A stretch of 64,000 bases of DNA from Candidatus Limnocylindria bacterium (GCA_050692055.1 JBOGTC010000072.1:12978-76977), one strand, 5' to 3'. Shown: positions 26,114-51,188, counted from the first letter of the stretch. Numbers and translations are program-made. The notes: a model not told the origin generated them from the sequence alone.

Positions 26114-27427
26114 CTAGACCGGCGGCAGCTCGAGGGATGCCCGACCGCGAGGGCGTGGTGAGGGCCGCACGGGCAGGGCGGCGTCGCCGGGCGGCGACGA
26201 GCGGACGCGGGCCAGGACGCCGGCGCGCGTGAGCTCCTCGTCGTAGACGACCTCGATGCGTCGCACCTGGGCGTCGATGCTGAAGCGCTCGGCCACGGTC
26301 CCATACCCCGCCTCGCCGAGGCGAACACGCAGCTCGGGGTTCGCGAGGAGCGTGGCGAGGGCGCGAGCCAGTGCGGCGGCATCGCCCGGCGGGACGAGCA
26401 GACCGTCCACGCCGTCGGTGATGACCTCCGGGATGCCGCCCACCGCGGATGCGACGACGGGGCGGCGCCGGGCCATGGCCTCGAGGATCGAGATGCCCTG
26501 GGCCTCGCGCAGCGAAGGCAGGACGGCGACTGTCAGGTCGGCGGTCAGGGCGCTGATGTCGTCGCGCCGGCCGGTGAAGACGATTCGGTCGCTGGCGGCC
26601 GGAGGCAGAGCCCGAACCTGGGCGCGCAGCGCATCGGCCTGGGAGCCTTCGCCGACGATGGCCAGCCAGGCATCTGGCGCGGACCGCAGGACCGATGGAA
26701 AGGCCTCCACCAGGAACCGATGCCCCTTCTCCGGCTCGAGCCGGGCGACCACCCCCACCAGCGGAGCGTCGCAGGGGATCGCGTACTCGTCGCGCATCGA
26801 GCAGGGCGGGGCCGGGCTGGCGAAGCGAGAGAGGTCGACGCCGTTGGGGATGACCGCGAACCGGCCGCCCTCGCGGCCCTCGGCGCGCACCTTGGCCGCG
26901 ATCGCCTCCGAGGGCACGATCAGCCGATCCATGTGCGGCGTCAGGCGCGCCAGCAGCGCGATGTCATCGGCCGATCGGACGCGCGAGGAGTGGACGGTGG
27001 CCGCGATCACCGGCGTCCCGGCCGCGATGGCGGCCCGCGTGCCGATCACCTCGGCGCGGTGCATGTGGGCGTGGACGAGGTCGATCTCGTGGTGACGCAG
27101 GTAGGCGGCCAGCTCTCGGACGGCGGCCTCGTCATCGGCCTTGGTGATGACGTCGACCTCGATGCCGAGCCGATGCAGGCGGGAAACAGCGCTGCCGGAG
27201 CTCAGGGAGAGGGCGCGGACCTCGTACCGGGAACGGTCGAGGCGCAGCAGGAGGCCGGAGTAGCTCTCCTGGGCACCACCGCTGCCCCCTGTCGCAAGCA
27301 GCTGCAGGATGCGCGGGCGGGGATGGCTCCTGGACCGATGGATCCGCCGATGGCGCAGGTACGGCGCGCCGCCGATGGCAGCCTCGTGTTCGGGCGCGGG
27401 ACGACGGCGCCTGCGGGTGGGAGTCAC
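26114..27427 (-). CDS. glycosyltransferase family 4 (GT-B) with Arg-rich N-terminal extension
   Basis: 'RILQLLATGGSGGAQ' is a GT4 N-terminus and 'EAQGISILEAMARRRPVVAS' the EX7E region. The only available start is the GTG at 27427. Confidence 0.8.
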   Translation of the reverse strand: MTPTRRRRRPAPEHEAAIGGAPYLRHRRIHRSRSHPRPRILQLLATGGSGGAQESYSGLLLRLDRSRYEVRALSLSSGSAVSRLHRLGIEVDVITKADDEAAVRELAAYLRHHEIDLVHAHMHRAEVIGTRAAIAAGTPVIAATVHSSRVRSADDIALLARLTPHMDRLIVPSEAIAAKVRAEGREGGRFAVIPNGVDLSRFASPAPPCSMRDEYAIPCDAPLVGVVARLEPEKGHRFLVEAFPSVLRSAPDAWLAIVGEGSQADALRAQVRALPPAASDRIVFTGRRDDISALTADLTVAVLPSLREAQGISILEAMARRRPVVASAVGGIPEVITDGVDGLLVPPGDAAALARALATLLANPELRVRLGEAGYGTVAERFSIDAQVRRIEVVYDEELTRAGVLARVRSSPPGDAALPVRPSPRPRGRASLELPPV

Positions 27428-27478
27428 CCACCGATGCTAGGTCCGGGCGCTCTGTTCGTCAAAGCGCCTCGCGGCGGA

Positions 27479-27790
27479 TCAGCCGGCGAGGATCAGCAGG
27501 CTGAGCGTGTTGGCGGTGAAGCCCAAGAGGCCGAAGCTGGTAGCCGCGGCGGAGCCCCACATGAGGAGGCGCGGGAAGCGCGTGGCGGTCGCCACGAGCA
27601 GGGCCAGGGTGATCAGGATCACGGCGCCCTTGGCCAGCAGGACGCCGTCGAGGCCCGCCCAGCGGTACAACCCACCGGCGATGCCGTTGCTCTCGATGCC
27701 GATGCCGTGCAGGCCGACTCCCAACGTGAACGTTGCGGCATCGGCGAGCTGGGCGAGGACGAGAGCCAGAAGTACCAGTCGCGTGCCCAT
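27479..27790 (-). CDS. small integral membrane protein
   Basis: 103 aa from the ATG at 27790, with 3-4 hydrophobic helices. The upstream part of the track ORF is not protein-like. No family assigned. Confidence 0.45.
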   Translation of the reverse strand: MGTRLVLLALVLAQLADAATFTLGVGLHGIGIESNGIAGGLYRWAGLDGVLLAKGAVILITLALLVATATRFPRLLMWGSAAATSFGLLGFTANTLSLLILAG

Positions 27791-28001
27791 GACCAAAGGA
27801 CTATGCACCATCCCGGCCAGCAGCCGGCCGGGTTCTCCGCCGAATGCGGTGCCGTGCGCCATTACCCGTTGCGCGTGCGCACCTGGGTAGAAGCGTGCCG
27901 CCGTCGGTCCGGTCGGGGCATGGGCCGGTCGGGGGATGTTGCATGCGCCCGGTCGCGCCGACACTGCGCGCGTTCGATCCCCAGCACAGAGGTGCGGACT
28001 C

Positions 28002-28160
28002 ATGGAGCAGCTCATCGTCATCTTCCTGCTCTTCTTCACGGCACTGGCCGCGGGTTGGTTCTATCTGCAGCGTGCCAAGCAGCGCGAGCCCCAGCAGACG
28101 GACGCGGCAGCCGCCGCGGAGAGCGACGGCCCAACCTCATCGGATCCGTCGGCCTCCTGA
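28002..28160 (+). CDS. small single-pass membrane protein
   Basis: RBS AGAGGTG, then the ATG at 28002 gives 'MEQLIVIFLLFFTALAAGWFYL', a TM helix. Its stop directly abuts the TTG start of the next gene. Confidence 0.4.
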   Translation: MEQLIVIFLLFFTALAAGWFYLQRAKQREPQQTDAAAAAESDGPTSSDPSAS

Positions 28161-29747
28161 TTGGTCACGGATCTCGCGCAGCGGCAGTCGGTTCCGCCGT
28201 CCGCCAACGCTGAGATCGCGACCAGCGCGCGGATCCCGTGGCATCCGCCGCTGATCGCGGTCGCCTTCGTCCTTCAAAACTACATCGAGAGCGGCGTCCA
28301 CGTCGCGGCCATCGGGCGTGCGTTGATCGTCGCGGTCCTCCTCGCCGTGGCCCTTCAGGCCCTCGGCTGGCTGGTCAGCCGCAGCCGCCACTTCGGCTCG
28401 ATGGCGGCCTCGAGCATCCTGGTGCTCGGAATCGCCTGGGTGCCACTGGTGGTCATGGGTCAGGCGATCGTCGGCCTTCCCGCATGGCAGGCGGCGATCC
28501 TGATCGCACCTCTCATGCTGCTCGTCCTCGCCGTCGCGCGGCTCGCGTTCGTCCATCGGGGTCGCATCTGGCGCCTGACCAGAGTCATGAACATCCTCAG
28601 CGCTGCGCTCCTGGCGGTGGTCATGGTGCAGCTCGCCACATCGCCGACCGCCGGCCAGGGCCTGCGTGAGCTCGTAGGTCCCTCGACGGTGAGCGCGATG
28701 TCAGCGGTTCCGGCGGGGACCGATCGGCGTCCGCCCGACATCTATGTCCTCCTGCTGGACGGGCACCCACGCGCCGACTCGCTGCTGGAGCAGCTCGGTA
28801 CCGACGTGCAGCCGTTCCTCGATCAGCTTGCGGCGCGTCGGTTCACGATCAGCGATCGTGGCGTGACGAACTATGGGTGGACGTCCGCATCGCTCTCGTC
28901 GATGCTCCACATGCAGTACCTGCATGAGCTGCCCGACGTCGTCCTCGATCCGGATGATCCCGTGCAGATGCGGCGCAGCATGGCGGAGAGCCCGGGCCCT
29001 GCGCATTTGAGGAGCGCGGGCTACGAGATCACCGCGGTCGGTCCGCCGTACGAGCACGTTGCCCTGCGATCAGCCGATCGCTTCGTGGACGCCGGGTACC
29101 TCAACAGCTTCGAATGCCACCTCATTCGTCGCACGATGATCGGCAGCATCGCCTGGCACGTATCACCCGGCTTCCTGGGTGACACTCGGCGGGAGGCCAT
29201 CACTCGCTCTATGAGCACGCTCGAGGACATCGCGCGCGAGCCGTCCTCTCGCCCCAGGTTCGTCCTCGTCCACCTCCCGACCCCGCACCTGCCGCTCCTG
29301 TGGGATGCAGAAGGGAACCCTGTCGATGATCCCGCAGGGTCGGACTGCGCGCCGCAGTTCGCCACCGGGCTGTCAGCCGATGAGGTCCAGCCAGCCTACC
29401 TGGCACAGCTGCAGCACGTCCAGGGCCTCGTCCTCGAGAGCATCGACGCGGTCCTCGCGGCGTCGGACGACCCACCTGTACTGCTCGTCCTCTCCGATCA
29501 CGGCGGCAAGCTCGGCGCCGCCGCAATCGATCCTGCGTCGCCGGAAGGCTGGCGCGACCGATTTGGCATCCTCTTCGCCGCTCACACGCCGGGGACGTCG
29601 ACGATGTTCCCGGACGAGGTCAGCCTCGTGAACGTACTGCCATCCATCCTCAACGAGTACCTCGAGGCAGATCTTCCGATTCGCCCGAGCCGGACGTTCG
29701 GCACGACCGACGGCGACCTGGGCGAGGTGCCGATGCTCGGCCACTGA
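28161..29747 (+). CDS. membrane-anchored alkaline-phosphatase-superfamily (LtaS/EptA/sulfatase-like) transferase
   Basis: There are 5-6 N-terminal TM helices followed by 'PDIYVLLLDGHPRAD'. Also present are 'NYGWTSASLSSML' (a Thr nucleophile context like EptA/LtaS), 'VHLPTPHLP' and 'LVLSDHGG'. The TTG start is uncertain. Confidence 0.65.
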   Translation: MVTDLAQRQSVPPSANAEIATSARIPWHPPLIAVAFVLQNYIESGVHVAAIGRALIVAVLLAVALQALGWLVSRSRHFGSMAASSILVLGIAWVPLVVMGQAIVGLPAWQAAILIAPLMLLVLAVARLAFVHRGRIWRLTRVMNILSAALLAVVMVQLATSPTAGQGLRELVGPSTVSAMSAVPAGTDRRPPDIYVLLLDGHPRADSLLEQLGTDVQPFLDQLAARRFTISDRGVTNYGWTSASLSSMLHMQYLHELPDVVLDPDDPVQMRRSMAESPGPAHLRSAGYEITAVGPPYEHVALRSADRFVDAGYLNSFECHLIRRTMIGSIAWHVSPGFLGDTRREAITRSMSTLEDIAREPSSRPRFVLVHLPTPHLPLLWDAEGNPVDDPAGSDCAPQFATGLSADEVQPAYLAQLQHVQGLVLESIDAVLAASDDPPVLLVLSDHGGKLGAAAIDPASPEGWRDRFGILFAAHTPGTSTMFPDEVSLVNVLPSILNEYLEADLPIRPSRTFGTTDGDLGEVPMLGH

Positions 29748-29773
29748 GACCTCGCCCATAGCCCAATGGGACC

Positions 29774-31813
29774 ATGGCTCGGCGACCCTGCGACGCTAAC
29801 CTTCGGCCGGTGAGCACCCGCCTGCGACTCGTCCTCCTCAGCTTCCTCATGCTCTTCGTCGAGCTGGCCCTGATCCGCTGGACCGGCTCGAACGTCGTCT
29901 ACCTGTCGTACTTCTCCAACTTCGTGCTGCTCGGCAGCTTCCTGGGCATTGGCATTGGATTCCTGCGTGCCCGAGCCCGAGTCGACCTGTTCCCGTATGC
30001 GCCGATCGCGCTGGCCTTCCTGGTCGGCTTCACGCTGGCCTTCAACGTCGAGATCGACCGCAGCGGCAGCGAGCTGATCTATTTCGGGTCTTTCCGCGAG
30101 ACCGGGCTGCCGATCTGGGCGATGCTGCCGGTGATCTTCGTGGCCGTCGCCACCGTGATGGCGATGCTGGCCGAGGGCGTCGCGCGGACCTTCGTCGAGT
30201 TCGAGCCGCTGGAGGCGTATCGGCTCGATATCGCCGGCAGCCTGCTGGGCATCCTGGGCTTCACCGCCCTGTCCTTCGCATCTGCGCCGCCGGTCGTCTG
30301 GGGCGTGGTGGCAGGCGCGCTGCTGCTCCTTCTCGTGCGCCGGGGCTGGCTGGTCCTGCGCGTGGTCGCCGTCGTGGGTCTCGCCATCATGCTCGGACGC
30401 GAGTCGATTCAGCACGACTCCTTGTGGTCGCCCTACTACAAGATCCGCGTCGCCGAGTACCAGGACGAGCACCACGTCTCGGTCAATGGGATTCCGCACC
30501 AGGCGATCGTGAGCGTAGATCGCAGGCGCGAGCTGGAGCCGGTGTACTTCGTCCCGTACGAGCGCAGCAGCCGCGACGAGCCGGGGAACGTGCTCATCGT
30601 TGGAGCCGGCACGGGCGGCGATGTCGCAATCGCGCTCGAAGAGGGAGCCACGCGGATCGACGCGGTGGAGATCGACCCGCAGCTGCAGCGACTGGGAGAG
30701 GAGCTGAATGCGGATCGGCCCTACGACGATGCGCGGGTCGAGGTGGTGATCGACGACGGCCGCGCTCATCTCGAGCGGACCGCGCAGGTCTACGACACGA
30801 TCCTGTTCGCCCTCCCGGACTCGCTGACGCTCGTCTCGGGCCAGTCGTCCCTCAGGCTCGAGAGCTACCTGTTCACCGAGCAGGCCATCGCGGCCGCGCG
30901 TGATCGCCTCGCCCCGGATGGCATCTTCGCCATGTACAACTACTACCGCGAGCAGTGGCTGATCGACCGGCTCGCGGCGACGCTGAATACGGTCTATGGG
31001 CACGCGCCGTGCGTTGACGAGGTCGGAGGTGGCGGCCTTGCGGCGCTCACCATCGGCCGCAGCGTCGGGGGTATCGACTGTCCCGCGCCCTGGGTTCCGA
31101 GCAACGCCGCGCCGGCACCGGTCACCGACGACTATCCATTCCTGTACCTGCGCGAGCCCACGATCCCGGCCTTCTACCTCGTCAGCATCGGCCTCATCCT
31201 GCTGGCCTCGCTGGCCATGATCCGCGTGGCCGGCGGGCGATTCACCCAGATGCACGGTTACCTCGACCTGTTTCTCATGGGTGCAGCGTTCCTGCTGCTG
31301 GAGACCAAGAGCGTGGTCCAGTTCGCGCTGCTGTTCGGCACCACCTGGTTCGTCAACGCGCTCGTGTTCGCCGGCGTGCTGGCATCGGTCCTGGCCGCGA
31401 TCGAGGTCACTCGCCGGGTGCCCCTCCCGCGCCCCGCGATCCTCTATGGCCTGCTCGTGGCGGCGGTGCTCGTCGGCTGGCTCGTCCCCGCCCACGCGCT
31501 CCTGCCGCTCCCGTTCTGGCTGCGCTTCGTGGCGGCCGTGGCTGTGTGGTTCACGCCCATCTTCGTGGCGAATCTCATCTTCGCCCAGCGCTTCCGCGAC
31601 GTGGAGGACTCGACCTCGGCGTTCGGTGCCAATCTGCTGGGCGCCATGATCGGAGGCCTCATCGAGTACGCGGCGCTGATGACGGGTTACCAGGCGCTGG
31701 CGCTCGTGGTGGCCGTCCTGTACGTCGGCGCGCTCGTCGCCACACCGGGCACGCGGCGGGTACTGGGCCTGTCGGCCGACGTGATCCGCAGTCCCGACCG
31801 GCTGGGCGCCTGA
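29774..31813 (+). CDS. polytopic membrane protein with central spermidine-synthase-like (SpeE/aminopropyl- or methyltransferase fold) domain
   Basis: A TM-rich N-terminus is followed by 'VLIVGAGTGGDVAIALEEGATRIDAVEIDPQL...DTILFALPD', a class I Rossmann/SpeE-like domain, then further C-terminal TM helices. Confidence 0.7.
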   Translation: MARRPCDANLRPVSTRLRLVLLSFLMLFVELALIRWTGSNVVYLSYFSNFVLLGSFLGIGIGFLRARARVDLFPYAPIALAFLVGFTLAFNVEIDRSGSELIYFGSFRETGLPIWAMLPVIFVAVATVMAMLAEGVARTFVEFEPLEAYRLDIAGSLLGILGFTALSFASAPPVVWGVVAGALLLLLVRRGWLVLRVVAVVGLAIMLGRESIQHDSLWSPYYKIRVAEYQDEHHVSVNGIPHQAIVSVDRRRELEPVYFVPYERSSRDEPGNVLIVGAGTGGDVAIALEEGATRIDAVEIDPQLQRLGEELNADRPYDDARVEVVIDDGRAHLERTAQVYDTILFALPDSLTLVSGQSSLRLESYLFTEQAIAAARDRLAPDGIFAMYNYYREQWLIDRLAATLNTVYGHAPCVDEVGGGGLAALTIGRSVGGIDCPAPWVPSNAAPAPVTDDYPFLYLREPTIPAFYLVSIGLILLASLAMIRVAGGRFTQMHGYLDLFLMGAAFLLLETKSVVQFALLFGTTWFVNALVFAGVLASVLAAIEVTRRVPLPRPAILYGLLVAAVLVGWLVPAHALLPLPFWLRFVAAVAVWFTPIFVANLIFAQRFRDVEDSTSAFGANLLGAMIGGLIEYAALMTGYQALALVVAVLYVGALVATPGTRRVLGLSADVIRSPDRLGA

Positions 31814-31822
31814 ACCGCCGAG

Positions 31823-32671
31823 CTACCGCTCCACCGGGGGCCGCTGCGGCGCGCGGGCGTCCCTGACGGGATGCAACCCGGCCACCAGCAGCGTGATCTC
31901 GTACACGAACAGCCGGGGCAACGCCAGGATGGCGGCCGTGGCTGCCGACAGGGCGGTGTACCGGGGGGCGAACAGGGCCATCGCGACCGTGGCGATCGCG
32001 GCTGAGGCGGCGACCAACACCCAGCCCCACGTGGGAAGCGTCCGCGCCAGCCCCGGATCGAGGGTGATCGGGTCGATCTCGAAGAGCACGATGGGTGCCC
32101 ACAGCACGATCGCGGCGACGACGGCATAGGCGAGCTGTGACCAGCGGCGCTCGGCGATGAAGACCGCGGCCAGGGCGATGGGCACCACCTTCAGGGAAGC
32201 GGCGATGCCGACCACCAGTCCGCCCCATCGTGTGGGCATGCCCCACACGAGCATCGCCAGCATCGGCCCCTGGATGTTTCCGCCGGACGAGATGCCAAAG
32301 AGGATCGCGGCCAGGAAGACCAGCAGCAGCCGAGCCTCCAGCCTCCGCTCACGGGCCAGCGGCACCAGCGCCAGGGCGGATCCCCCGAGGAGAAACACGG
32401 ACCACAGCACGTTGCGCGCGAGGTCCGGTAGGTACGTAAGCGGCGCGAAGGCGAACGCGAACCACGGCGCGTATCGATAGGCGGTGTTCGGGTCGATCGG
32501 CCCGCCGTAGAGCTGATCTCCCGATCGCAGCCGCAGCGCCGCCGCCTCGTACACCTGCATGTCGTGGAGGTGCCAGTCGATGATCCCGAAGATGACGGCG
32601 CTGATGGCGAGACCCACGAGGACTGCTGTCACGACCAGCCGTGACAGCCTTCTCGCCAGGCGAATCGACAT
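31823..32671 (-). CDS. DUF2029 / GT87-like polytopic glycosyltransferase (paralog a)
   Basis: The true ATG is at 32671. Motifs 'HDMQVYEAAALRLRSGDQLYGG', 'YRYAPWFAFAFAPL' and 'SLKVVPIAL' match the PimE-type family. Confidence 0.75.
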   Translation of the reverse strand: MSIRLARRLSRLVVTAVLVGLAISAVIFGIIDWHLHDMQVYEAAALRLRSGDQLYGGPIDPNTAYRYAPWFAFAFAPLTYLPDLARNVLWSVFLLGGSALALVPLARERRLEARLLLVFLAAILFGISSGGNIQGPMLAMLVWGMPTRWGGLVVGIAASLKVVPIALAAVFIAERRWSQLAYAVVAAIVLWAPIVLFEIDPITLDPGLARTLPTWGWVLVAASAAIATVAMALFAPRYTALSAATAAILALPRLFVYEITLLVAGLHPVRDARAPQRPPVER

Positions 32672-32775: not shown

Positions 32776-33606
32776 ATGCGCGTGATCGGTCAGAGGCCCG
32801 CGATCCCCCGGATCTCGCGGGTGGTGCTGCTTGGCGCCCTCGTGGCCGCGGCACTTGCCGTGCCCAACGCGATACTGGTCGGCCGCTCGCTCGAGGTGGT
32901 GCTCGCGGGTCTACCGGCCGTCGACTGGCACCATTTCGTGGAGGCGTCGCGCCGCGTGACCGATGGCGGCCTCTACGACATCTCAGCCAACTATGGATAC
33001 CGCTACTCGCCCGTGCTCGCGTACGGGTTCGCGCTGCTCGTCCCGCTCGGTGACCTCGGCTGGCGCCTGCTGCACGTCGTCGCTGCCCTGGCGCTCCCGA
33101 ACTGGCCGATGCGCATCGTCGCCCTCGCGTCATGGCCGTTCTGGTTCGACGTGGAGGCCGGCAACCTGATGATCTTCGTGCTCCTGGCAGCCGCCTGGGC
33201 GTTGCAGGGAAATCGTTTCGCCACCGTAGCGTTCCTGGCGCTGACCATCGCCATCCCGCGTCCACTGATGCTGCCGATCGCCGTCTGGCTCCTGTGGAAG
33301 CGGCCCGAGTATCGCGTGCCAGCCCTGGCGATCTTCTCGGTCCACGCCGTCGCCGTGTTGGCGACCGGGTGGGGGCCGGAGTGGGTGGCCACGCTCCAGC
33401 ACTCCGGAAATGAGATCCTGTCGCCCAACAACCTGGGCCCGAGCCGCATCGTCGGCATGGCCTGGCTGATCATCGCCCTTCCCCTCGCCGCTTTCCTGAC
33501 GTGGCGCGGACGAATCGGCTTCGCCAGCCTTCTCGCGAGCCCGTACTGGCTCCCGTACTACGGCCTGATGCCTATCGTCGAGCTCGGCCGCCGGGAACGC
33601 CGCTGA
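32776..33606 (+). CDS. DUF2029 / GT87-like polytopic membrane protein (paralog b, divergent)
   Basis: 'YGYRYSPVLAYGFALL', 'GNLMIFVLLAAAWAL' and polytopic topology. It is more divergent than paralogs a and c. Confidence 0.6.
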   Translation: MRVIGQRPAIPRISRVVLLGALVAAALAVPNAILVGRSLEVVLAGLPAVDWHHFVEASRRVTDGGLYDISANYGYRYSPVLAYGFALLVPLGDLGWRLLHVVAALALPNWPMRIVALASWPFWFDVEAGNLMIFVLLAAAWALQGNRFATVAFLALTIAIPRPLMLPIAVWLLWKRPEYRVPALAIFSVHAVAVLATGWGPEWVATLQHSGNEILSPNNLGPSRIVGMAWLIIALPLAAFLTWRGRIGFASLLASPYWLPYYGLMPIVELGRRERR

Positions 33607-37577: not shown

Positions 37578-37584
37578 TGTAGCC

Positions 37585-43042: not shown

Positions 43043-43086
43043 CTACCCATCGATTCTGCCCCAAGGGCGGCTGGTACGGTACGGCG

Positions 43087-43446: not shown

Positions 43447-44651
43447 ATCGGCTCAAGGACGTGGTCGAGCGGACCGTCAGCTCCCGGGCCGCGGGACTGG
43501 CGCGCATGGCGGTCGGGCTGGCGGCGGCGGTCAAGGCGGTGGAGCTCGCACCCGTTCTCACCCGCTTCGCGGAACCGGGGCCGCTTCGGATTCCGTACGC
43601 CGAGGGCCTGCCGACGGTGGCCGATCTCCCGGCAGCCGCCGTCACCCTGGTCTGGCTGCTCGCGGCACTCGCCTTCGCGGCCGGGGCGACGACCGCAGTG
43701 ACGGGCACCGTTCTCGTCGTGGTGCTGGCGGCAGTGCTGGCGAGCGACCAGCAGCTGTACAGCAATCATCTCTATCTGCTCACGCTGCTCGTCGCCCTGC
43801 TGACGCTCGCGCGAGCAGGCGCCGCGCTCTCGGTGGATGCGCGTCGAGGAGGCGGCCGCGATCGGATCGCGGACTGGCCGCTGCAACTGGTGCGCGCCCA
43901 GGTGAGCATCGTCTACCTGTTCGCGGCCCTGGCGAAGGTGACGGGCGTGTACCTGTCGGGGAGCGTGGTGGCCGTCACGTTGCGGCGCGACGGCCCCCTG
44001 GCCATCCCGGCCGAATGGCGCGTCTTCGAGCTGATGGCCGCCGCCGCCATGCTCGCCATCCTCGTGGAGCTGTGGCTGTCGATCGCGCTGTGGCGTCCGC
44101 GCTGGCGGCCCGCCGCGTTCGCGACGGGCTTCCTCATGCACGTCGGGATCGCGGTCTGGTTCGCTCCCACCATCCAGCTCGTGATCTTCTCGCTCATCAT
44201 CCTGGCCCCGTACGTCCTCTTCCTTGATGCGCAACCGGCCAGTCGAGTCGCGGTCTGGGACGACTCCTGCGGCTTCTGCCGCGGAACGATCGGCTGGGCA
44301 CGAAGATTGGACTGGCTGCATGCCATCCGCTTCGTTCCCGGATCGGACACGGCTGCGGTCAGGGCCCTCGGCATCAGCCAGGAGGAGGCCGATCGCGCGC
44401 TCCAGCTGCGCTTCGGTGGTGTGAACGTCTCTGGGTTCCGGGCCGTTTCGGCAATGCTCGAGGTGCTGCCGGTCTCGTTCCTGTGGGCGCCCTTGCTGAG
44501 GCTGCCACCGGTCCGAGCGGTGGGCGACGCTGCCTATCGCCGGGTGGCGCAGCGACGCATGTGCAGCGTCATGGCGGGCCTCCAACCGGCTCTTGCTGCG
44601 GCGGCGAATGTCGCCGACCGTGGCGTGGCTTCCGAGCCGCCGACCGGGTGA
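43443..44651 (+). CDS. fusion: HTTM (vitamin-K-dependent gamma-carboxylase-like) membrane domain + DCC-family thiol-disulfide oxidoreductase domain
   Basis: 'SNHLYLLTLLVALLTLARAGAALSVD' parallels the GGCX/HTTM core '[26 protein letters not shown]'. The C-terminal 'VWDDSCGFCRG' is the DxxCxxC DCC (DUF393) motif. Confidence 0.75.
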   Translation: MNRLKDVVERTVSSRAAGLARMAVGLAAAVKAVELAPVLTRFAEPGPLRIPYAEGLPTVADLPAAAVTLVWLLAALAFAAGATTAVTGTVLVVVLAAVLASDQQLYSNHLYLLTLLVALLTLARAGAALSVDARRGGGRDRIADWPLQLVRAQVSIVYLFAALAKVTGVYLSGSVVAVTLRRDGPLAIPAEWRVFELMAAAAMLAILVELWLSIALWRPRWRPAAFATGFLMHVGIAVWFAPTIQLVIFSLIILAPYVLFLDAQPASRVAVWDDSCGFCRGTIGWARRLDWLHAIRFVPGSDTAAVRALGISQEEADRALQLRFGGVNVSGFRAVSAMLEVLPVSFLWAPLLRLPPVRAVGDAAYRRVAQRRMCSVMAGLQPALAAAANVADRGVASEPPTG

Positions 44652-44696: not shown

Positions 44697-45572
44697 ATGT
44701 CTGAGCAGGTCCGTACGCTGAGTCGCCCGACCGACGCCGCTCGCATGCCCGGCTATACGTCGCTGGCGAGGGCATTGGTCGGCCTGCTGATCATCGGCCC
44801 GGTGCTGGCCTGGAGCGTCCAGGCGCTCGTGAGTGGCTGGAACTTCGTGGACCTCCATGTCTACCTGGGGGCGGCCGAGAACCTCGTACGTCACGGCAAC
44901 CCCTACCTCGCCAGTGACGCGACGACCGATCTGCTGCACTATCACTACGCGCCGTGGTTCGCCCTCCTGTTCGTGCCATTGCTGTCGCTTCCGCTCGTTT
45001 TCACCGAATGGATCTGGGCCGCGGCGCTCCTCGCGGCGATGGTGCCGGCGCTGATGGTCTTTCGCGGTGATGGCATGGCTGCCGCACCGCTCGCAGTCCT
45101 CATGGGCGCGCTGCTCCTGGGCCAGGCGATGGGCGGCAACGTGCAGGGCGTGCTTCTTGCGCTCCTGATCTGGCGCCTCGACAGGGTGGATGGGCCAGTC
45201 TGGGTCGGCCTCGCCGCCAGCTTGAAGGCGATCCCGATCCTGCTCGTCCTCTATTACGCCGGCCGCCGGCAGTGGCGAAGGGCGATGATCGCGGGGGTGG
45301 TGACCGCAATCCTCGTGGGGCCCATGCCCCTGTTCGACATCCCGCCCGACAATCTCTGGCCAGGGGTCACCGGCCTCTATGCCATCTCCCCCGTCCTGTG
45401 GGTCGCCTCGGCGATCATCGCTGCAGGCTGCGCGCTGCGGCTCGCCGGGGGCCGATACGGCCGGCTGGCGGCCGCGGTCGCCATCGTCGCCGCCCTGCCG
45501 CGCCTCTACCCATTCGACATCAGCTGGCTGCTGCTTGGCGTCCCTCCCTCACGCAGGGACGACTCGGCATGA
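44697..45572 (+). CDS. DUF2029 / GT87-like polytopic glycosyltransferase (paralog c)
   Basis: 'VDLHVYLGAAENLVRHGNPYL', 'YHYAPWFALLFVPL' and 'SLKAIPILL'. Confidence 0.75.
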   Translation: MSEQVRTLSRPTDAARMPGYTSLARALVGLLIIGPVLAWSVQALVSGWNFVDLHVYLGAAENLVRHGNPYLASDATTDLLHYHYAPWFALLFVPLLSLPLVFTEWIWAAALLAAMVPALMVFRGDGMAAAPLAVLMGALLLGQAMGGNVQGVLLALLIWRLDRVDGPVWVGLAASLKAIPILLVLYYAGRRQWRRAMIAGVVTAILVGPMPLFDIPPDNLWPGVTGLYAISPVLWVASAIIAAGCALRLAGGRYGRLAAAVAIVAALPRLYPFDISWLLLGVPPSRRDDSA

Positions 45573-46459
45573 CCCTGCTCGATCGCGTCCGCTCACGGCG
45601 CTTCCTGCACGACGCGCTGGCCGTGGCGGGGATCATCGTCGTCGTGTTCGTGTGGTGGCTGATCGGCTTCAACGACTACCAGCACGATGCGCGCGCCTAC
45701 TGGACCGTCGAGCTGTCCGACCCGTACGCCGCGGCCGAGGTCGGCGGCAAGGATGCCTACCTGTACTCCCCCCTCTTCGCCCAGCTGACGTCGCCCCTGA
45801 CGCTCCTGCCGTGGGAGGTCTTCCGCCCGCTCTGGGCGGCGGTCAACCTCGGCGCCCTGGTCTGGCTGGCGGGACCGATCATCGGCGCGCTGCTGCTGGT
45901 CGTCCCCGGATCACCGCTGATCGACGAGGTCGGCACCGGCAACATCCACCTGCTCATCGCGGCCGCCATCGTCGCCGGCTTCCGCTACCCGCCTGCCTGG
46001 GGATTCAACCTGCTGACCAAGGTGACGCTGGGCATCGGCCTCCTGTACTTCGTCGGGGCACGCCAGTGGCGGCATCTCGCGCTCGCGATCGGCCTCACCG
46101 CAGCCATCAGCCTGGTCTCGTTCGCCGTGGCCCCCGGCCTGTGGCTTGCCTGGATCGAGGTGCTCATCACGAACAGCGGTGCGCGGATCCCCGACGACAT
46201 CGCGGTGATCCCTGGCTCGCTGGCGCTGCGAACGGCCATCGCCGGGATCATCGCCATCGGCGGCGGCATCCTCGGCTGGCGCTGGACGGCCGCGGTCGCG
46301 GCCACGCTGGCGCTGCCGGTCCCGTGGTCCTCGGGTCTGAGCGTCCTCGTCGCCGCCATCGCGCTCTGGCGCTTTGACATGCTGCGCGAGCCACGCCGGC
46401 CATTCCGCACCCACCTTCGACCCAGCACACCAGGGCAACGCGAGGCCCAGACGGCGTGA
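45569..46459 (+). CDS. DUF2029 / GT87-like polytopic membrane protein (paralog d, divergent)
   Basis: An ATGA overlap marks the true start at 45569. 'AYLYSPLFAQLTSPL' and 'GNIHLLIAAAIVAG' are present, and the protein is polytopic. Confidence 0.6.
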   Translation: MTLLDRVRSRRFLHDALAVAGIIVVVFVWWLIGFNDYQHDARAYWTVELSDPYAAAEVGGKDAYLYSPLFAQLTSPLTLLPWEVFRPLWAAVNLGALVWLAGPIIGALLLVVPGSPLIDEVGTGNIHLLIAAAIVAGFRYPPAWGFNLLTKVTLGIGLLYFVGARQWRHLALAIGLTAAISLVSFAVAPGLWLAWIEVLITNSGARIPDDIAVIPGSLALRTAIAGIIAIGGGILGWRWTAAVAATLALPVPWSSGLSVLVAAIALWRFDMLREPRRPFRTHLRPSTPGQREAQTA

Positions 46460-47976
46460 CGGCGCTGCGTATCCCGGCCAGCTGGATCGCGGTGGCCGCC
46501 TTCTTCTTCCTGGTGGCGCTCCCGCGGCCGGCCATCCCGCTCATCGACGGTGACGTGTGGTGGCACATCCGGGCCGGGCGGGAGATGCTGTCCAGCGGAT
46601 CGGTGCCCAGGGTCGACTCCTGGAGCATCGTCGGCGCCGGCATGCCGTGGACCAGCCAGGACTGGCTCAGCAACGTGGCGCTGGCGCTCGGGTACGGCGC
46701 CGGGGAGATCGGGCCCACGCTCCTGTCCATTGGCTGGGCGCTGCTGGTGGTGGCCGCGCTGGCGCTGCTGTGGTCGGCAATCGGCTTCCGGGTCCGCGCC
46801 GTGGGTTGGCTCGGCCGAATCCTGCTGCTCGCGGCAGGCCTCGTCGTCTCCGGCCCGACCCTCGGGGTCAGGGTTCAGGTCGTGGACCTGACACTGGCGG
46901 CGGCGGCCATGGCCGTCCTGTGGCATTACCAGGCACGCCGCAACGCCCGATGGCTGGTCGCCCTGCCGGTGCTGGCAGTGGCCTGGGCCAACCTGCACGC
47001 GGGTTGGCCGCTGCTCTTCCTGCTCGGCGGTGCGCTCGTGGTGGGCGAGGGGGCCGACCGGCTCGTCCGGCGGCGCCTCGGGCCGGCGCCGCTCAGCTGG
47101 CGCGAGCTCGGATGGCTGTGTGCCGCCCTGGTCGTGGCCCTGGCCGCGATCAGCGTCAATCCCAACGGGCCGGCGCTGTACCTCTATCCACTCGAGACGT
47201 CGGGCATCTCGGCACACCGCGCCTACCTCGCCGAGTGGCAGGCGCCGAACGTGGGCACGTTCGTGGGCCAGGTCTACCTCGGGTTCCTGGCGCTCGTTGT
47301 GCTCCCCACCCTATGGATCAGTCGCCGCCGGATGCGCGCCGCCGATCTGCTGATCCTGCTGGGAGTCGTGGTCATGGGAGCGGCCGCCGCCCGCTTCCTT
47401 CTGATCGCTGGGCCGATCGGCGCAGCCGTCGCCGCCCTCTACCTGGCGCCGGCGCTGGCTGGTTCGCGGCCTGGCCGGCGCATGGGACCGACCCTCGCGC
47501 GCCTTGCCGTGCCTCGGCCCGATCCGCGCTACTCGGCGCTCAACGCGACCCTCATCGGGCTGGTCGCCGCCGCCGGTGTCACCCTCGCCGTGGCCCGGGT
47601 CTCTCCCAGCGTTCAGGCCGAGTCCATCGCCGGGCACATGCCGGTCGACGCCGTCGAATGGATCCGCGCCAACGATCCGGGCAGCCGCCCCTTCAACGTC
47701 TACGCCTGGGGCGGCTACCTGGGCCACATGCGGCCGACACACCCGGTCTTCATCGACGGGAGGTCCGACATCTACGGCGACGAGCCGATCCGCCGCTACG
47801 CCGCTACGATCAACCTCGAGACCGATCCGCAGGCCGTCCTCGACCGGCACGAGATCGATCACGTGCTCTTCCAGCCCGACCAGCCGCTTGCGGAGTGGCT
47901 CGACGCCAGCGAAGCGTGGCGACAGGCCTACGCAGATGACGTCGCGGTGGTCTGGGTCCGGTCAGGGGCCGATTGA
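46456..47976 (+). CDS. uncharacterised ~500-aa polytopic membrane protein, putative GT-C (paralog X1)
   Basis: GTGA coupling to the upstream gene. 'DGDVWWHIRAGREMLSSGSVPRVDSWS' follows TM1, then about 10+ TM helices. The soluble C-terminal domain carries 'AWGGYLGHM...FIDGRSDIYGD'. Confidence 0.55.
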   Translation: MTALRIPASWIAVAAFFFLVALPRPAIPLIDGDVWWHIRAGREMLSSGSVPRVDSWSIVGAGMPWTSQDWLSNVALALGYGAGEIGPTLLSIGWALLVVAALALLWSAIGFRVRAVGWLGRILLLAAGLVVSGPTLGVRVQVVDLTLAAAAMAVLWHYQARRNARWLVALPVLAVAWANLHAGWPLLFLLGGALVVGEGADRLVRRRLGPAPLSWRELGWLCAALVVALAAISVNPNGPALYLYPLETSGISAHRAYLAEWQAPNVGTFVGQVYLGFLALVVLPTLWISRRRMRAADLLILLGVVVMGAAAARFLLIAGPIGAAVAALYLAPALAGSRPGRRMGPTLARLAVPRPDPRYSALNATLIGLVAAAGVTLAVARVSPSVQAESIAGHMPVDAVEWIRANDPGSRPFNVYAWGGYLGHMRPTHPVFIDGRSDIYGDEPIRRYAATINLETDPQAVLDRHEIDHVLFQPDQPLAEWLDASEAWRQAYADDVAVVWVRSGAD

Positions 47977-49446
47977 GGCGGAGGCCTCCCGCGGGCAGCT
48001 CTCGCGCAGCAGGAGGACGGAGATCTCGTCGCGGTGCGCCTCGCACCAGCCTGCCTCCTGCGCGGCACCCCGCACGAGCGGGGCCGACGGCGGCAGGAGG
48101 ATCGCCTCAACCCCGTAGCGTTCCGTGAGCTCGGCCCACCCGTCGTCCGCGGCGCGGATGGTGGAGTAGTCCTGGAGGATCGCATCGCCATACATGTCGC
48201 TGCGGCCGTCGACGAAGACGCGCCCGCCATCCTCGTAATGGCGGTAGATGGCGTACCCGCCCCAGTCGTAGTCGGCCAGTACGCGGGCGTCGGGCAACAC
48301 GCGCTCGAGGGCGCCGGCGCCCTCCACCGGAAAGCCGCGGCGCAGCGCCGCATCGGCGCTCACCGCGCCCGGAATGATGACGAGGACGGCGGCGACCAGG
48401 ATCGCGGTGACGCCGGTCTCCAGCACCCGGCGGCCCGCATCGGTCCGGGGCCTCTCTGGCCGGTCCCACCGGAGCAGGCGATCGTCCAGGCCGAGCGCCA
48501 GCGTCGGCAGGGCGAACAGGGCGGCAAGCGGCGCGTTGCGCGTCGCGACCAGGGCCATTACGATCCCCACCAGCGACAGCGTGGTGAGCCAGCCGGGAGT
48601 CGCACGCCCGCCGTTCAACGCCAGCCCCGCGATCAGCAGGAGCAGGCCCCAGTGCCGTGGGTCGTGGAAGTCGGGCGACTGCCACTCCTGGATGTTCCGG
48701 ATGCCCCAGTCGCTTCCGTCCAGGTAGCGGAGCGGGTAGACGAGCCCCTCGATCCCGGCGGGCGTCAACGCCGAAGCGGCGAAGGCGGCCGCGACCATGC
48801 CGATCACCGTCCAGCGGCGCGGCGCCATGACCGTCCGGCCAAGAAGCGAGAAGAGCGCGTAGAGGCCGAGCACGCCGAGGCCAACGACGTAGAGGCCGTG
48901 GACGTTCGCCCACAGCGCGAAGAGCGGCACCACCAGCCAGGGTCTGAGCCGATGCTCCGATCGGAGGCGCATGAGCAGGCCGATGAGCAGCGCGACCAGC
49001 AGCCACGAGATGGCCTGCGGCCGCACGGTGGCGAACGGCGCGAAGACGTAGGCCGCCAACGCCAGCAGCGCGGCGATCGACGCGACACGCACGCCCTCGG
49101 CGCGCAGGGCCAGGCCAACCACCAGCGGCGCTGCGCCGATGATGACGCCGAACACGACCCCCGCCGGGACGGCACCACCGCTCGACACGAGCAGGTGGAT
49201 GAACAGCTGGCCGAGCCATTCGTGGAGGACCCATGGCTGTCCGGCCCAGGTGAAGGAGAAGGGATCCGTGGACGGCACGCTTCCCGATTCGGCGATCAGC
49301 CGGCCGGTGGTCACGTGCCAGAAGTAGTCCGCGTCGACAAGCCCGCGAGCCACCACCAGCGCCACGAAGAAAGCGACGTAGACCGCGGCCACCAGCGCGA
49401 ACGGGCTGGGCAGCCAGCGCGGGGCGGCTCGGCTCGGCTGGGTCAT
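47962..49446 (-). CDS. uncharacterised ~500-aa polytopic membrane protein, putative GT-C (paralog X2)
   Basis: It has the same architecture and motifs as X1: 'DADYFWHVTTGRLIAESGSVPSTDPFS' and 'DWGGYAIY...FVDGRSDMYGD'. It is convergent with X1, with a 15-nt overlap. Confidence 0.55.
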   Translation of the reverse strand: MTQPSRAAPRWLPSPFALVAAVYVAFFVALVVARGLVDADYFWHVTTGRLIAESGSVPSTDPFSFTWAGQPWVLHEWLGQLFIHLLVSSGGAVPAGVVFGVIIGAAPLVVGLALRAEGVRVASIAALLALAAYVFAPFATVRPQAISWLLVALLIGLLMRLRSEHRLRPWLVVPLFALWANVHGLYVVGLGVLGLYALFSLLGRTVMAPRRWTVIGMVAAAFAASALTPAGIEGLVYPLRYLDGSDWGIRNIQEWQSPDFHDPRHWGLLLLIAGLALNGGRATPGWLTTLSLVGIVMALVATRNAPLAALFALPTLALGLDDRLLRWDRPERPRTDAGRRVLETGVTAILVAAVLVIIPGAVSADAALRRGFPVEGAGALERVLPDARVLADYDWGGYAIYRHYEDGGRVFVDGRSDMYGDAILQDYSTIRAADDGWAELTERYGVEAILLPPSAPLVRGAAQEAGWCEAHRDEISVLLLRESCPREASASIGP

Positions 49447-49535
49447 CGGCTCAGCAGTCTACGCGGCGGCCGTGGCCGCCCGGAGGTCCCGAAAGTACCA
49501 CCGCCACCCCGTGGGGGCTGGCTAGTATCCGCGCC

Positions 49536-51188
49536 ATGGCCCAGCCCGGACCGATGCCGGTGACGGCGGCACGCACGTCCATAGTCGACCTCGTGGCACT
49601 CACCGTCCTCGCCCTGCTGGCCCGCACCACGGCGGCCCTCCTCGTGCCGGGACCGCCGCACGTCGATGCCGCCTACTACACCCTGGTCGCCGAGCGGCTG
49701 GCCGACGGCCACGGCTTCAGCGTCCCGGTGCTGTGGAGCTTCCTCGAGGTCGGCGGCGGGCTGCCTGCCGATCCGAGCCTGCCGGTGCCGAGCAACGGCC
49801 ACTGGCGACCGCTCGCCTCGATCCTGGCCGCCGGTCCCATGGCGCTGCTCGACGGCGGCTGGCGCGCCGGGCAGCTCATCATGGTGCTGCTCTCCACGCT
49901 CCTCGTCCCGGCGACGTACCTCATCGGCTGGCAGCTGTGGCGCTCGCGCCGCGTGGCCCTGCTCGGCGCACTCCTCGCCGTCCTCGCCGGCCCGCTGCTG
50001 GTCATGTACCCGCTGGTCGAGACCTTCGCTGTGTTCGGCGTCGCCGGCGCGACCGCCCTGTACGCCAGCGTCCGCGCCGTGGATGCCCTCCATCCGGGCC
50101 GGTGGCTGGTCCTGGCCGGCGCGGCGGCGGGTCTGGCGAGCCTGGCCCGCATCGACGGCGTGCTGCTGACCGTCGCGCCGGCCACGGCCTGGCTGGTCAG
50201 CCGCCCGTTCGGCATCGGCCCCTTCGGCTCACCCGCCCGGGCGCTCGCCTGGGGCTCGGCGAGCGCAGTCGCCTTCCTCGTCGTGCTGGGTCCCTGGCTC
50301 GTCCGCGACCTGCTGGTCTTCGGCACGCCGTTCCCGTCCGCCGGCGGGCACACCCTCTGGATCCGCGAGTACAACGAGCAGTTCTCCATCGCGAGCGACC
50401 CGACGCCGGCGACCTACCTGGCCTGGGGACCGCTGAGCATCCTCGCCTCGAAGCTCAGCGCCGCGGTCCAGGTGGTCGGGAGCACGCTGGCGGTGATGGG
50501 CGGCATCTTCGGCATCCTCTTCCTCGCCGGCCTGTGGCTGCATCGCCGCGACCGGCGGCTGGCGCCGTTCATCATCTACGTCGTCGTCCTGTTCGCCGCC
50601 ATGGCGCTCATCTTTACCGTGCACGCGCCGCGGGGCGCCTTCGTCCACTCCGCTCCCGCCTGGCTGCCGTTCGCCTTCCCCATGGCGATCGCCTCGCTGC
50701 CCGCCGTGGCCGGCGCGGCGGGTCGCGCCTGGCGGCTGCTCCGGCGGCCGGCATCCCATCGGCTGATCGAGATGGCGGGGCTGGTGGGCGCCCTCGTCCT
50801 GTCGCTCGCGGGGGGCGCGGGGCTCCTCCTCGGCTGGTCGATGACCCAGGATCGGTACGAAGCGGCCGCGAGGTTCCTCTCGTCCGAGGCCGATGCCGCC
50901 GCGGTCGTGATGAGCGCGGATCCGGCTCGGCTCAACCTGCTCACCGCCAACCCCGGCGTGCCCGCGCCGTTCGATCCGTACCCGGTCATCGAGAAGGTCG
51001 TCGAGGCGTACGACGTCGACTGGCTGGTGGTGGTGCTGCCGCCAGGCGAGTCACGCGATCCACTCGGCCTGTGGGAAGGGGCGAACGCGACCGACATCGA
51101 GGGCAACCACCCGGATTGGCTGCCCGCCGAGGCCGCCTTCGAGGCGGATGGCGTCCGCGTCTTCGATGTCGCCGGGCCGGGCGGCTAG
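49536..51188 (+). CDS. GT39/GT83-like (PMT_2, ArnT-type) polytopic glycosyltransferase
   Basis: 'PHVDAAYYTLVAERLADGHGFS' after TM1, many TM helices, and a C-terminal soluble domain. Confidence 0.65.
   Translation: MAQPGPMPVTAARTSIVDLVALTVLALLARTTAALLVPGPPHVDAAYYTLVAERLADGHGFSVPVLWSFLEVGGGLPADPSLPVPSNGHWRPLASILAAGPMALLDGGWRAGQLIMVLLSTLLVPATYLIGWQLWRSRRVALLGALLAVLAGPLLVMYPLVETFAVFGVAGATALYASVRAVDALHPGRWLVLAGAAAGLASLARIDGVLLTVAPATAWLVSRPFGIGPFGSPARALAWGSASAVAFLVVLGPWLVRDLLVFGTPFPSAGGHTLWIREYNEQFSIASDPTPATYLAWGPLSILASKLSAAVQVVGSTLAVMGGIFGILFLAGLWLHRRDRRLAPFIIYVVVLFAAMALIFTVHAPRGAFVHSAPAWLPFAFPMAIASLPAVAGAAGRAWRLLRRPASHRLIEMAGLVGALVLSLAGGAGLLLGWSMTQDRYEAAARFLSSEADAAAVVMSADPARLNLLTANPGVPAPFDPYPVIEKVVEAYDVDWLVVVLPPGESRDPLGLWEGANATDIEGNHPDWLPAEAAFEADGVRVFDVAGPGG

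Follow-up and report, generated by a model that had tools for sequence, protein, structure and literature searches.

A conserved Limnocylindria locus with lipid-linked oligosaccharide genes and seven GT-C-type genes is a candidate for surface glycoconjugate assembly

In three-component glycan modification, a GT2 polyprenyl-phosphate-sugar synthase operates together with a flippase and a GT-C transferase (PMC11127046; PMC8035078). In the bacillosamine pathway of Campylobacter jejuni, WlaL/PglF is the UDP-GlcNAc 4,6-dehydratase. In PimE, D58 is the catalytic base, Y62 its hydrogen-bond partner, and K195 a phosphate ligand (PMC12041525). Chloroflexota stain Gram-negative and have multilayered envelopes without BAM and lipopolysaccharide (LPS) genes, and the make-up of their outer layer is open (bioRxiv 10.1101/2025.08.19.671072, citing Sutcliffe). 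Here, we analyzed 64,000 nucleotides (hereafter, the window) from a Candidatus Limnocylindria bacterium (GCA_050692055.1 JBOGTC010000072.1:12978-76977), in which positions 26114-51188 hold 18 genes (G1-G18), nearly all with glycan-assembly signatures. Our preferred reading, which we hold at slightly less than even confidence, is that these genes constitute a chromosomal, vertically inherited locus for the two-stage assembly of a surface glycoconjugate in a Chloroflexota cell that probably lacks LPS.

Genes were called from a frame plot of GC content at third codon positions (GC3), translation, and Pfam scans, together with prediction of transmembrane (TM) helices. TM helices were predicted in 14 of the 18 proteins and most proteins carried glycan signatures, in agreement with the original prediction, made from the sequence alone, that nearly every open reading frame (ORF) here encodes a membrane or glycan-assembly protein. 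Its near-complete inventory of the genes was also borne out by Pfam, less firmly for G3, G6, and G18. The description of the locus as an island built mostly from GT-C enzymes fared less well. GT-C-type genes account for seven of the 18, namely three PimE-like mini-GT87 genes, one divergent relative, two paralogs without a Pfam match, and one GT39/PMT-like gene. Moreover, GC content is ~70% over the whole window and does not dip across 26-51 kb (range 0.67-0.73); the median for the class is 68.9%, in genomes with a median size of 2.39 Mb (PMC10608941). A foreign or mobile island was ruled out by this flat GC profile, by the class-wide, vertical conservation of the locus, and by the failure to find an integrase.

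G16 (46456-47976, plus strand, 506 aa) and its paralog G17 (47962-49446, minus strand, 494 aa) matched no Pfam or NCBIfam model, in Pfam even at E 10, and a sequence-only PDB search with the G16 profile gave nothing useful. G16 is 100% identical to hypothetical protein ACRDGV_06340 [Candidatus Limnocylindria bacterium]. The two proteins are 29% identical (E 3e-25) and have the motifs D-x-D, WAN-H-G, and DGRSD-YGD in common. When the AlphaFold model of G16 (pLDDT 92.9, pTM 0.91) was compared with the PDB by Foldseek, the best 27 matches were all GT-C proteins (TM-score up to 0.61), including STT3, DPY19, ArnT, AglB, PglB, AftA, ALG9, EmbA/B, AftB, and Pmt4. The earlier assignment of these ~500-aa paralogs to the GT-C fold is thus sustained by the model for G16 and, via paralogy, for G17. 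So is the DxD-like motif that had been noted after TM1: D31 and D33 are invariant directly after TM1 in a 33-sequence alignment of the G16 family that includes G17, and the model has a helix from residue 32, immediately past TM1. The same alignment revealed a small C-terminal domain with a conserved DGRSDxYGD motif. The G16-family profile was matched at E≤1e-3 by 29,883 of 1.84 billion cluster representatives and at E≤1e-30 by 4,415, and the distant members that we sampled were named only 'hypothetical protein' or, spuriously, 'MFS permease'. Judging from the modeled fold, G16 and G17 represent a large, unannotated family of putative GT-C enzymes, which may use polyprenyl-phosphate-linked sugar donors, as the gene context in some relatives suggests (see below).

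The mini-GT87 proteins G5 (31823-32671, minus strand, 282 aa), G14 (44697-45572, plus strand, 291 aa), and G15 (45569-46459, plus strand, 296 aa) scored 42.2, 42.1, and 61.5 bits, respectively, against Pfam GT87, all above the cut-off of 25 bits. D-x3-Y and K motifs are present in G5, and G14 matched the PimE-type NCBIfam model PRK13375 at E 5.6e-14, below its cut-off. For G5 and G14, the match spans just positions 1-141 of the 237 in the Pfam model, and a single-sequence PDB search with G15 gave nothing useful. We aligned 29 mini-GT87 sequences from the window and its relatives, and found D40, Y66, P68, G124, N125, and K151 to be invariant and Y44 nearly so. The resulting profile matched PimE in the PDB (9dm5_A, E 1.8e-8) in an alignment that ends at PimE residue 221, and also matched the GPI mannosyltransferase PIG-M. 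D40/Y44 aligned with D58/Y62 of PimE, and K151 with K195. Collectively, these alignments predict that the mini-GT87 proteins are PimE-like in mechanism without having the full PimE architecture. G6 (32776-33606, plus strand, 276 aa) is a divergent GT87-like protein that matched no Pfam model, has no clear D-x3-Y and K, and aligned with G5 over 136 aa at a BLASTP E-value of 1e-4; its orthologs in relatives are 38-53% identical. Hence, the original count of four DUF2029/GT87 paralogs stands for G5, G14, and G15, and is not supported by Pfam for G6.

The last GT-C-type gene, G18 (49536-51188, plus strand, 550 aa), had been called GT39/PMT_2-like. G18 itself reached 18 bits against Pfam PMT, below the cut-off of 22.7; in sequence searches of the PDB, the single sequence gave nothing useful and a profile matched no solved PMT or other structure. 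Support for the assignment comes from its homologs, 16/28 of which matched PMT at E≤0.01 (best 3.3e-9) and 4/28 PMT_2, and which are named GT39 or 'phospholipid carrier-dependent glycosyltransferase' in their source records. D44, located after TM1, is invariant in the G18 family.

To compare gene neighborhoods, we collected loci (numbered with the prefix L) by contig look-ups for G16 and G11 homologs and by a genome scan with the G16 alignment (78 loci), annotated them by tblastn with the window proteins, and scored the 32 Limnocylindria-type loci of at least 14 kb. A genome scan with G11 alone gave no matches. Since loci were picked by their similarity to G16, all counts are conditional on that similarity. 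GT87-like genes were present in 29 of the 32 loci, G18 in 28, and both G16 and G17 in 23. A HisKA_3 kinase/LuxR regulator pair was a syntenic neighbor of the GT-C block in 27/32, and RcpC/Tad genes occurred in 24/32. Any of G7-G11 was found within 10 kb in 12 loci, and G11 in eight. Each locus had two to eight GT-C genes in the same neighborhood, and this clustering is not due to chance. In L003 and L006, the order is DegT, fusion, Wzy_C/TPR, GT87, G17, G16, G18, whereas in L034, L045, and L046, it is GT87 copies, G4, G16, Wzx, GT4, DegT; the relatives that carry the Wzy_C/TPR gene have a G15-type GT87 gene directly after it. Beyond the class, five genomes of Aggregatilineales (class Anaerolineae, ~52% GC) have a contiguous related set, 25-31% identical to the window proteins, that comprises a YfhO-like GT-C, a WbaP-like phosphoglycosyl transferase (PGT), Wzy_C+TPR, G16-like, GT87, PMT_2, GT87, and G18-like genes. 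The block is therefore co-conserved well beyond close relatives, as the original prediction would have it.

We also noted contigs with the locus (50-67% identity to G16) in metagenome-assembled genomes (MAGs) labeled Steroidobacteraceae, Zixiibacteriota, and Methylomirabilota (L009, L062, L070, L080, L017, and L023), which probably reflect mis-binning rather than transfer. Separately, loci from long-read ('MFD') assemblies (L002/L054 and L045) showed broken gene calls, with the fusion gene in three pieces and a GT2 gene with an out-of-frame tail. Owing to these apparent frameshift errors, gene counts for such loci are lower bounds.

The lipid-linked oligosaccharide genes include G10 (37546-40095, plus strand), which encodes an 849-aa fusion of a PGT and a 4,6-dehydratase (Pfam Bac_transf, CoA_binding_3, and Polysacc_synt_2). 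Bac_transf scored 181.6 bits (aa 22-212) and Polysacc_synt_2 336.9 bits (aa 522-800), with four TM helices in between. In PDB searches, the C-terminal domain matched C. jejuni WlaL/PglF (5bju, E 1.5e-72) and the N-terminal domain WbaP and PglC (~1e-21); the fusion is kept in relatives at 70-72% identity. G9 (36441-37577, plus strand; Pfam DegT, 368.7 bits) is a DegT-family sugar 4-aminotransferase; among solved structures, it is closest to ArnB (E 1e-75) and perosamine synthase, with the PglE-like 1o61 at E 8e-24. Thus, G10 and G9 supply a pgl-type trio of PglF-type dehydratase, C4 aminotransferase, and PglC-type PGT. They are accompanied by a polytopic Wzx-type flippase, G7 (33630-35105, plus strand; Polysacc_synt 46 bits, Polysacc_synt_3 31.5 bits), and by two cytoplasmic GT4 enzymes, G8 (35102-36322, plus strand; Glyco_trans_4_4 98 bits, Glycos_transf_1 64 bits), whose ATG overlaps the G7 stop codon (ATGA), and G1 (26114-27427, minus strand; Glycos_transf_1 137 bits, Glyco_transf_4 55.6 bits, no TM helices). 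In the distant relative L004/L005, we found an unfused version of the set, made up of a PglF-like dehydratase, a PglD-like acetyltransferase, DegT, a 218-aa PglC-like PGT, GT4s, and Wzx, adjoining Wzy_C/TPR, GT87, and G16/G17 genes.

The original prediction had invoked a Wzx/Wzy-type unit. Two components of such systems, an initiating PGT (G10) and Wzx (G7), are indeed in the window. However, no Wzz/GNVR chain-length regulator domain was detected in any scanned window protein, and the sole Wzy_C protein, G11, resembles a WaaL ligase and is at most a candidate polymerase.

G11 (40092-42308, plus strand; Pfam Wzy_C, 39.3 bits, plus TPR) starts with an ATG that overlaps the G10 stop codon. Its AlphaFold model (pLDDT 88.9) has a C-terminal TPR superhelix of ~250-300 aa. 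In Foldseek searches, the membrane part matched WaaL (7tpg_B, E 2.4e-4, TMt 0.52), and residues ~440-690 matched OGT/SPY-type TPR superhelices. R281, R309, and H326, which lie in a large loop, are invariant in the family alignment; conserved Arg/His residues in the outer loop have established roles in WaaL. A count from a cytoplasmic N-terminus gives 13 TM helices, which would put the catalytic loop as well as the TPR arm on the outer side of the membrane, and the arm is therefore probably extracytoplasmic in the model. No PglL_A domain was detected in G11 by Pfam. Given that Pfam Wzy_C does not separate Wzy polymerases from WaaL ligases (PMC4594306), the modeled fold makes a role as a ligase or O-oligosaccharyltransferase at least as likely as polymerization. 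Lipid A-core is an unlikely acceptor, because Chloroflexota are reported to be without LPS genes. A literature search found no paper on Wzy_C-TPR fusions.

Drawing on gene content, folds, conserved catalytic motifs, and synteny, we infer a two-stage pathway in which the identity of the sugars, the order of the steps, the single product, and the acceptor are all presumptive. At the cytoplasmic face, the dehydratase half of G10 and G9 would convert a UDP-HexNAc to a UDP-4-amino-4,6-dideoxy-HexNAc-type sugar, which the PGT half of the same G10 polypeptide would load onto polyprenyl phosphate. G8, and perhaps G1, would add one or two sugars before G7 flips the lipid-linked oligosaccharide. At the outer face, the seven GT-C enzymes (four mini-GT87/PimE-like proteins, G16/G17, and G18) would extend the glycan with polyprenyl-phosphate-monosaccharides, each using the Asp after TM1 as a base; the donors would come from a GT2 enzyme encoded elsewhere in the genome. 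That these enzymes act on the same lipid-linked unit is suggested by their gene neighborhood. G11 would then take the glycan off its lipid carrier and attach it to the final acceptor, a protein or wall component, and the product would be decorated by G3 (phospho-substituent transferase-like) and G12 (methyltransferase).

Several observations weigh against this two-stage pathway. The modules are separable, as 20/32 loci are devoid of G7-G11 homologs within 10 kb of the GT-C block. G9 is nearer to ArnB than to PglE, and Pfam scans of the window revealed neither a Hexapep/PglD_N protein, that is, no PglD-type acetyltransferase, nor an LCP ligase. The mini-GT87 proteins are without the C-terminal third of PimE, which contains W319/H321/H322 (276-296 versus 415 aa). 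That the G11 TPR arm is extracytoplasmic was deduced by counting helices in the model. Wzy_C is compatible with a ligase, an O-oligosaccharyltransferase, or a polymerase, and no Wzy polymerase was among the structures that the G11 membrane domain matched. Finally, no ORF scanned across the 64-kb window encodes a GT2, and no GtrA/MATE-type donor flippase was found there. The lack of Wzz, PglD, PglL_A, and LCP from the window is also the reason why G7-G11 looks, by gene content, like a pgl-type pathway for a short oligosaccharide that ends in a ligase-type enzyme, not like a demonstrated Wzy polymerization system.

That the window is devoid of a GT2-type polyprenyl-phosphate-hexose synthase had been noted already in the original prediction. 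Relatives do have GT2 genes in the cluster. L046 has one for a 253-aa protein whose sole PDB match is the Pyrococcus furiosus Dol-P-Man synthase (E 6.7e-8). L045 has one right after the G16 homolog, followed by LPG_synthase_TM and Acyl_transf_3. In L073 (8186-12578, an Anaerolineae MAG), a small GT2 (248 aa) adjoins the gene for a G16-like GT-C in a compact module with a SAM-dependent methyltransferase and Acyl_transf_3. L082 showed a weaker, partial match to the L073 GT2 ~3 kb from its G16-like gene. The GT2 proteins of L046, L045, and L073 had no tblastn match in the window. Given the in-cluster GT2 genes of relatives, the lack of one in the window would reflect where the gene happens to lie and is not a paradox; in mycobacteria, likewise, ppm1 is not adjacent to pimE. 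GT2 genes beside Wzx in L007 and L004 were considered as donor synthases and rejected, as their products do not look like GtrB and have zero or one C-terminal TM helix. The L073 and L045 modules further suggest that the G16 family is often part of a glycan-modification cassette.

The remaining genes of the locus are G2-G4, G12, and G13. G2 (27479-28039, minus strand; GC3 of 0.82 in frame) encodes a small membrane protein with ~3 TM helices and no Pfam or NCBIfam match, and its true start may be internal. G3 (28161-29747, plus strand) is a membrane-anchored protein of the alkaline-phosphatase/sulfatase superfamily that had been annotated as an LtaS/EptA-like transferase. This is consistent with its architecture of four to five N-terminal TM helices, its DG..R and SDHG motifs, and a 48%-identical homolog in L006 that carries PF00884. 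G3 itself scored just below the Pfam Sulfatase cut-off of 25 (23.7 bits, E 3.6e-5), and a single-sequence PDB search gave nothing useful. G4 (29774-31813, plus strand) is a polytopic protein in which TM blocks flank both sides of a central spermidine-synthase-like domain of the S-adenosylmethionine (SAM) fold (Pfam Spermine_synth, 34.7 bits; NCBIfam speE models far under cut-off); in relatives with a G4 gene, identity is mostly 65-67% (42% in a single case), and the gene lies among GT87 genes. G12 (42305-43042, minus strand) encodes a SAM-dependent methyltransferase (Methyltransf_25 69.8 bits, Methyltransf_11 63.8 bits); a plus-strand ORF at 42296-43090 was dropped in its favor on the basis of the frame plot and Pfam. 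G13 (43443-44651, plus strand) encodes a vitamin-K-carboxylase-like HTTM domain (76.7 bits) fused to a DCC1-like thiol-disulfide oxidoreductase (56.9 bits), and was found in 4/32 loci. Like G3, it recurs sporadically among the GT87 copies of relatives.

Of the start-stop overlaps (ATGA/GTGA) that had been thought to tie the modules together, those at 35102, 40092, 45569, and 46456 are real gene-gene overlaps; at 43443, by contrast, the ATGA joins no two genes, since G12, the next gene upstream, lies on the opposite strand 400 bp away. Convergent genes also overlap tail to tail, G11/G12 by 4 bp (42305-42308) and G16/G17 by 15 bp (47962-47976), leaving no space for terminators between them. The strand layout of G1-G18 implies at least seven transcription units. 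An Rfam search of the window gave no matches; a tRNA-Ile (GAT) called by ARAGORN inside G8 (35509-35584, plus strand) is most likely a false positive, as no Rfam tRNA reached the gathering score.

Upstream of the locus, 11941-23938 holds a sugar/inositol-type catabolic cluster that is apparently unrelated to it (two ROK regulators, an ABC sugar transporter, GFO/IDH/MocA oxidoreductases, a xylose-isomerase-like TIM barrel, and a DeoC-type aldolase), followed by YtxH-like, PCMT, and YGGT genes. A third GT4 gene with an adjoining MFS transporter gene lies 19 kb upstream, outside the block (6506-7564, minus strand, and 7497-8909, plus strand). Downstream, Pfam identified the HisKA_3 histidine kinase (51298-52308, plus strand) and the LuxR-type response regulator (52325-53095, plus strand). 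We noted that the regulator is 82-97% identical across relatives, in which the neighboring GT-C proteins are only ~50-60% identical; such conservation is unusually strong for a two-component regulator. Between the regulator and RcpC lies a 61-aa ORF (53460-53645, plus strand) that contains EGQTLVEYGLLLALIAIIV and encodes a Flp prepilin with the G/xTLVEY Flp motif; Flp_Fap genes occupy the equivalent position in L002, L003, and L006. The Tad locus itself (53672-63971) comprises RcpC, a receiver-domain CpaE/TadZ-like ATPase, TadA, TadB, TadC, two TadE, and a TadG-like protein. Among these Tad genes of the window we found no secretin, in keeping with a cell that has no outer membrane.

Other explanations have to be weighed against a single two-stage pathway. 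The locus may instead consist of two or more independent neighbors: a pgl-like lipid-linked oligosaccharide pathway (G7-G11) that ends in ligation or O-glycosylation, and a Pmt/PimE-like pathway (G18, GT87, and G16/G17) whose role, as in Actinobacteria, is to mannosylate secreted proteins or to assemble a lipomannan-like lipoglycan directly from polyprenyl-phosphate-sugars. We consider this a real, if somewhat unlikely, possibility. The left part of the locus is variable, only 12/32 loci having any of G7-G11 at most 10 kb from the GT-C block, and the block is tied more tightly to the kinase/regulator pair (27/32) and to Tad genes (24/32); GT39 and GT87 are the enzyme pair of actinobacterial O-mannosylation and of phosphatidylinositol mannoside (PIM) and lipomannan (LM) synthesis (PMC12041525; PMC12331936); and the genes switch strand four times and make up at least seven separate transcription units. 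Against this separation speaks the finding that PGT, Wzy_C/TPR, G16-like, GT87, and G18-like genes are contiguous in two classes at 25-31% identity, that both gene sets occur together in differing arrangements (L034, L045, and L046 versus L003 and L006), and that a G15-type GT87 gene directly follows Wzy_C/TPR wherever relatives carry the latter.

A classical Wzx/Wzy polymer, as the original prediction had it, would make G11 the Wzy polymerase, with the GT-C enzymes adding side-chain sugars after polymerization in the manner of the three-component Gtr, YfhO, and GT136 systems. Wzx, PGT, and GT4s are all in the window, Wzy_C also occurs in polymerases and Pfam cannot tell these from ligases (PMC4594306), post-polymerization glycosylation by GT-C enzymes is well documented (PMC11127046; PMC8035078), and in L073 and L045 the G16-like gene adjoins GT2 and Acyl_transf_3 in the manner of a modification module. 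Yet the block was found to have neither a Wzz/PCP gene nor one for export or attachment (LCP), the membrane domain of G11 has WaaL as its best match together with a ligase-type Arg/His loop and a TPR arm typical of acceptor recognition, and seven GT-C enzymes are far more than in known side-chain systems; we regard such a polymer as improbable. More doubtful still is a pathway dedicated to pilin or protein O-glycosylation, with G11 as a PglL/TfpO-type O-oligosaccharyltransferase, its TPR arm binding a protein such as the Flp pilin encoded 2.3 kb downstream, and the GT-C enzymes extending protein-linked sugars. G7-G11 encode the same set of enzymes as the pgl systems of Neisseria and Campylobacter, the kinase/regulator pair and RcpC/Tad genes border the GT-C block in 24-27/32 loci, and Flp pilin genes are located there in the window as well as in L002, L003, and L006. 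Moreover, Pseudomonas aeruginosa TfpW, a GT-C with a periplasmic TPR encoded beside pilA, glycosylates pilin (bioRxiv 10.1101/2020.04.19.049825), and O-oligosaccharyltransferase genes are often near those of their substrates (PMC3643930). However, the ~20 kb inspected around the Aggregatilineales cluster has no annotated Tad genes, a PglL_A domain is missing from the Pfam matches of G11, and the adjacency may merely be conserved genome order. Glycosylation of Flp is hypothetical, and the prepilin is a possible target judging from gene position.

Returning to the two-stage pathway, conservation across at least two classes makes the cluster a concrete candidate pathway for the Chloroflexota outer layer, and its interest would rise if it does build outer layers of the Chloroflexota envelope. 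In the broadest version, Chloroflexota would have a phylum-level assembly line similar to that of the endoplasmic reticulum (ER), with PGT priming, flipping, outer-face GT-C extension involving G16/G17, and en bloc transfer to a protein or wall acceptor by a TPR-armed WaaL-fold enzyme, and the product would be a major component of the outer envelope; we think this unlikely. The G16/G17 model and the candidate catalytic residues D31/D33 should be useful for CAZy-type annotation, and the Aggregatilineales version offers an experimental route in a better-sampled, lower-GC lineage.

All of the enzyme classes in the locus are known, and extracytoplasmic modification by GT-C enzymes is known from Gtr, YfhO, and GT136 (PMC11127046; PMC8035078). 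The original prediction spoke of a hybrid of two logics; PGT/Wzx and PimE-like GT-C enzymes do occur together, but periplasmic elaboration of Wzx-exported glycans by GT-C enzymes was already known (PMC11127046). What is new is that a TPR-armed WaaL-fold enzyme is encoded alongside five to eight GT-C genes in a phylum that reportedly has no LPS genes; also new are the PglC::PglF fusion, the mini-GT87 architecture, and the Pfam-less G16/G17 family. Our literature search found no paper on this cluster or on Limnocylindria glycans.

Among the described systems, the Campylobacter/Neisseria pgl pathways resemble the locus in having a PglF-type dehydratase, DegT, a small PglC-type PGT, GT4, a flippase, and a Wzy_C-family transferase, and relative L004 adds a PglD-like acetyltransferase to the likeness. 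By contrast, the dehydratase and PGT are here in one polypeptide, no acetyltransferase is in the window, the aminotransferase is nearer to ArnB, the Wzy_C protein ends in a TPR tail of ~250-300 aa and is without PglL_A, and seven GT-C genes are at the locus. With the mycobacterial pathways for PIM, LM, lipoarabinomannan, and arabinogalactan (PimE, MptA-C, Emb, and Aft; Ppm1), the locus shares several GT-C enzymes, GT87 proteins that keep D-x3-Y and K (PMC12041525), and, presumably, outer-face polyprenyl-phosphate-sugar donors. It differs from them in that the GT87-like proteins are ~280-296 aa, versus 415-431 aa for PimE, and are without the C-terminal module, that priming is of the PGT/Wzx/WaaL-like kind, that no phosphatidylinositol-anchor enzymes were identified, that Ppm1 is not in the window, and that the host belongs to Chloroflexota. 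Three-component systems (GtrA/B/C; CsbB/GtcA/YfhO; GT136 of Citrobacter youngae) likewise use a GT-C enzyme to modify a Wzx-exported or wall glycan (PMC11127046; PMC8035078), and the small GT2 genes beside G16-like genes in L045, L046, and L073, of which the L046 copy resembles a dolichol-phosphate mannose synthase, are in line with them; unlike these systems, the locus has seven GT-C genes instead of one, no GT2 or GtrA/MATE flippase in the window, and, in G16/G17, proteins that match no existing Pfam or NCBIfam model.

Actinobacterial O-mannosylation (Pmt GT39 and Ppm1, with PimE-type extension) is comparable in that the GT39/PMT-like G18 is clustered with GT87-like genes; G18, however, is under the Pfam cut-off and matches no solved PMT by sequence, and the linkage to PGT/Wzx/WaaL-like genes is no part of the actinobacterial system. 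The eukaryotic ER N-glycan pathway (ALG enzymes, ALG3/9/12/6/8/10, and the oligosaccharyltransferase) has the proposed logic of priming, flipping, GT-C extension, and en bloc transfer; the G16 model matches the STT3 and ALG9 folds and the GT87 profile matches PIG-M, whereas the predicted transfer enzyme has a WaaL fold here instead of being STT3, and the order of steps here is the proposed one. Finally, P. aeruginosa TfpW is likewise a membrane-bound glycosyltransferase that has a periplasmic TPR and whose gene neighbors that of a pilin (bioRxiv 10.1101/2020.04.19.049825), but its TPR is attached to a GT-C core and its partner is a type IVa pilus, whereas in the Limnocylindria locus the TPR arm is borne by a WaaL-fold core and the neighboring genes are those of a Tad/Flp system.

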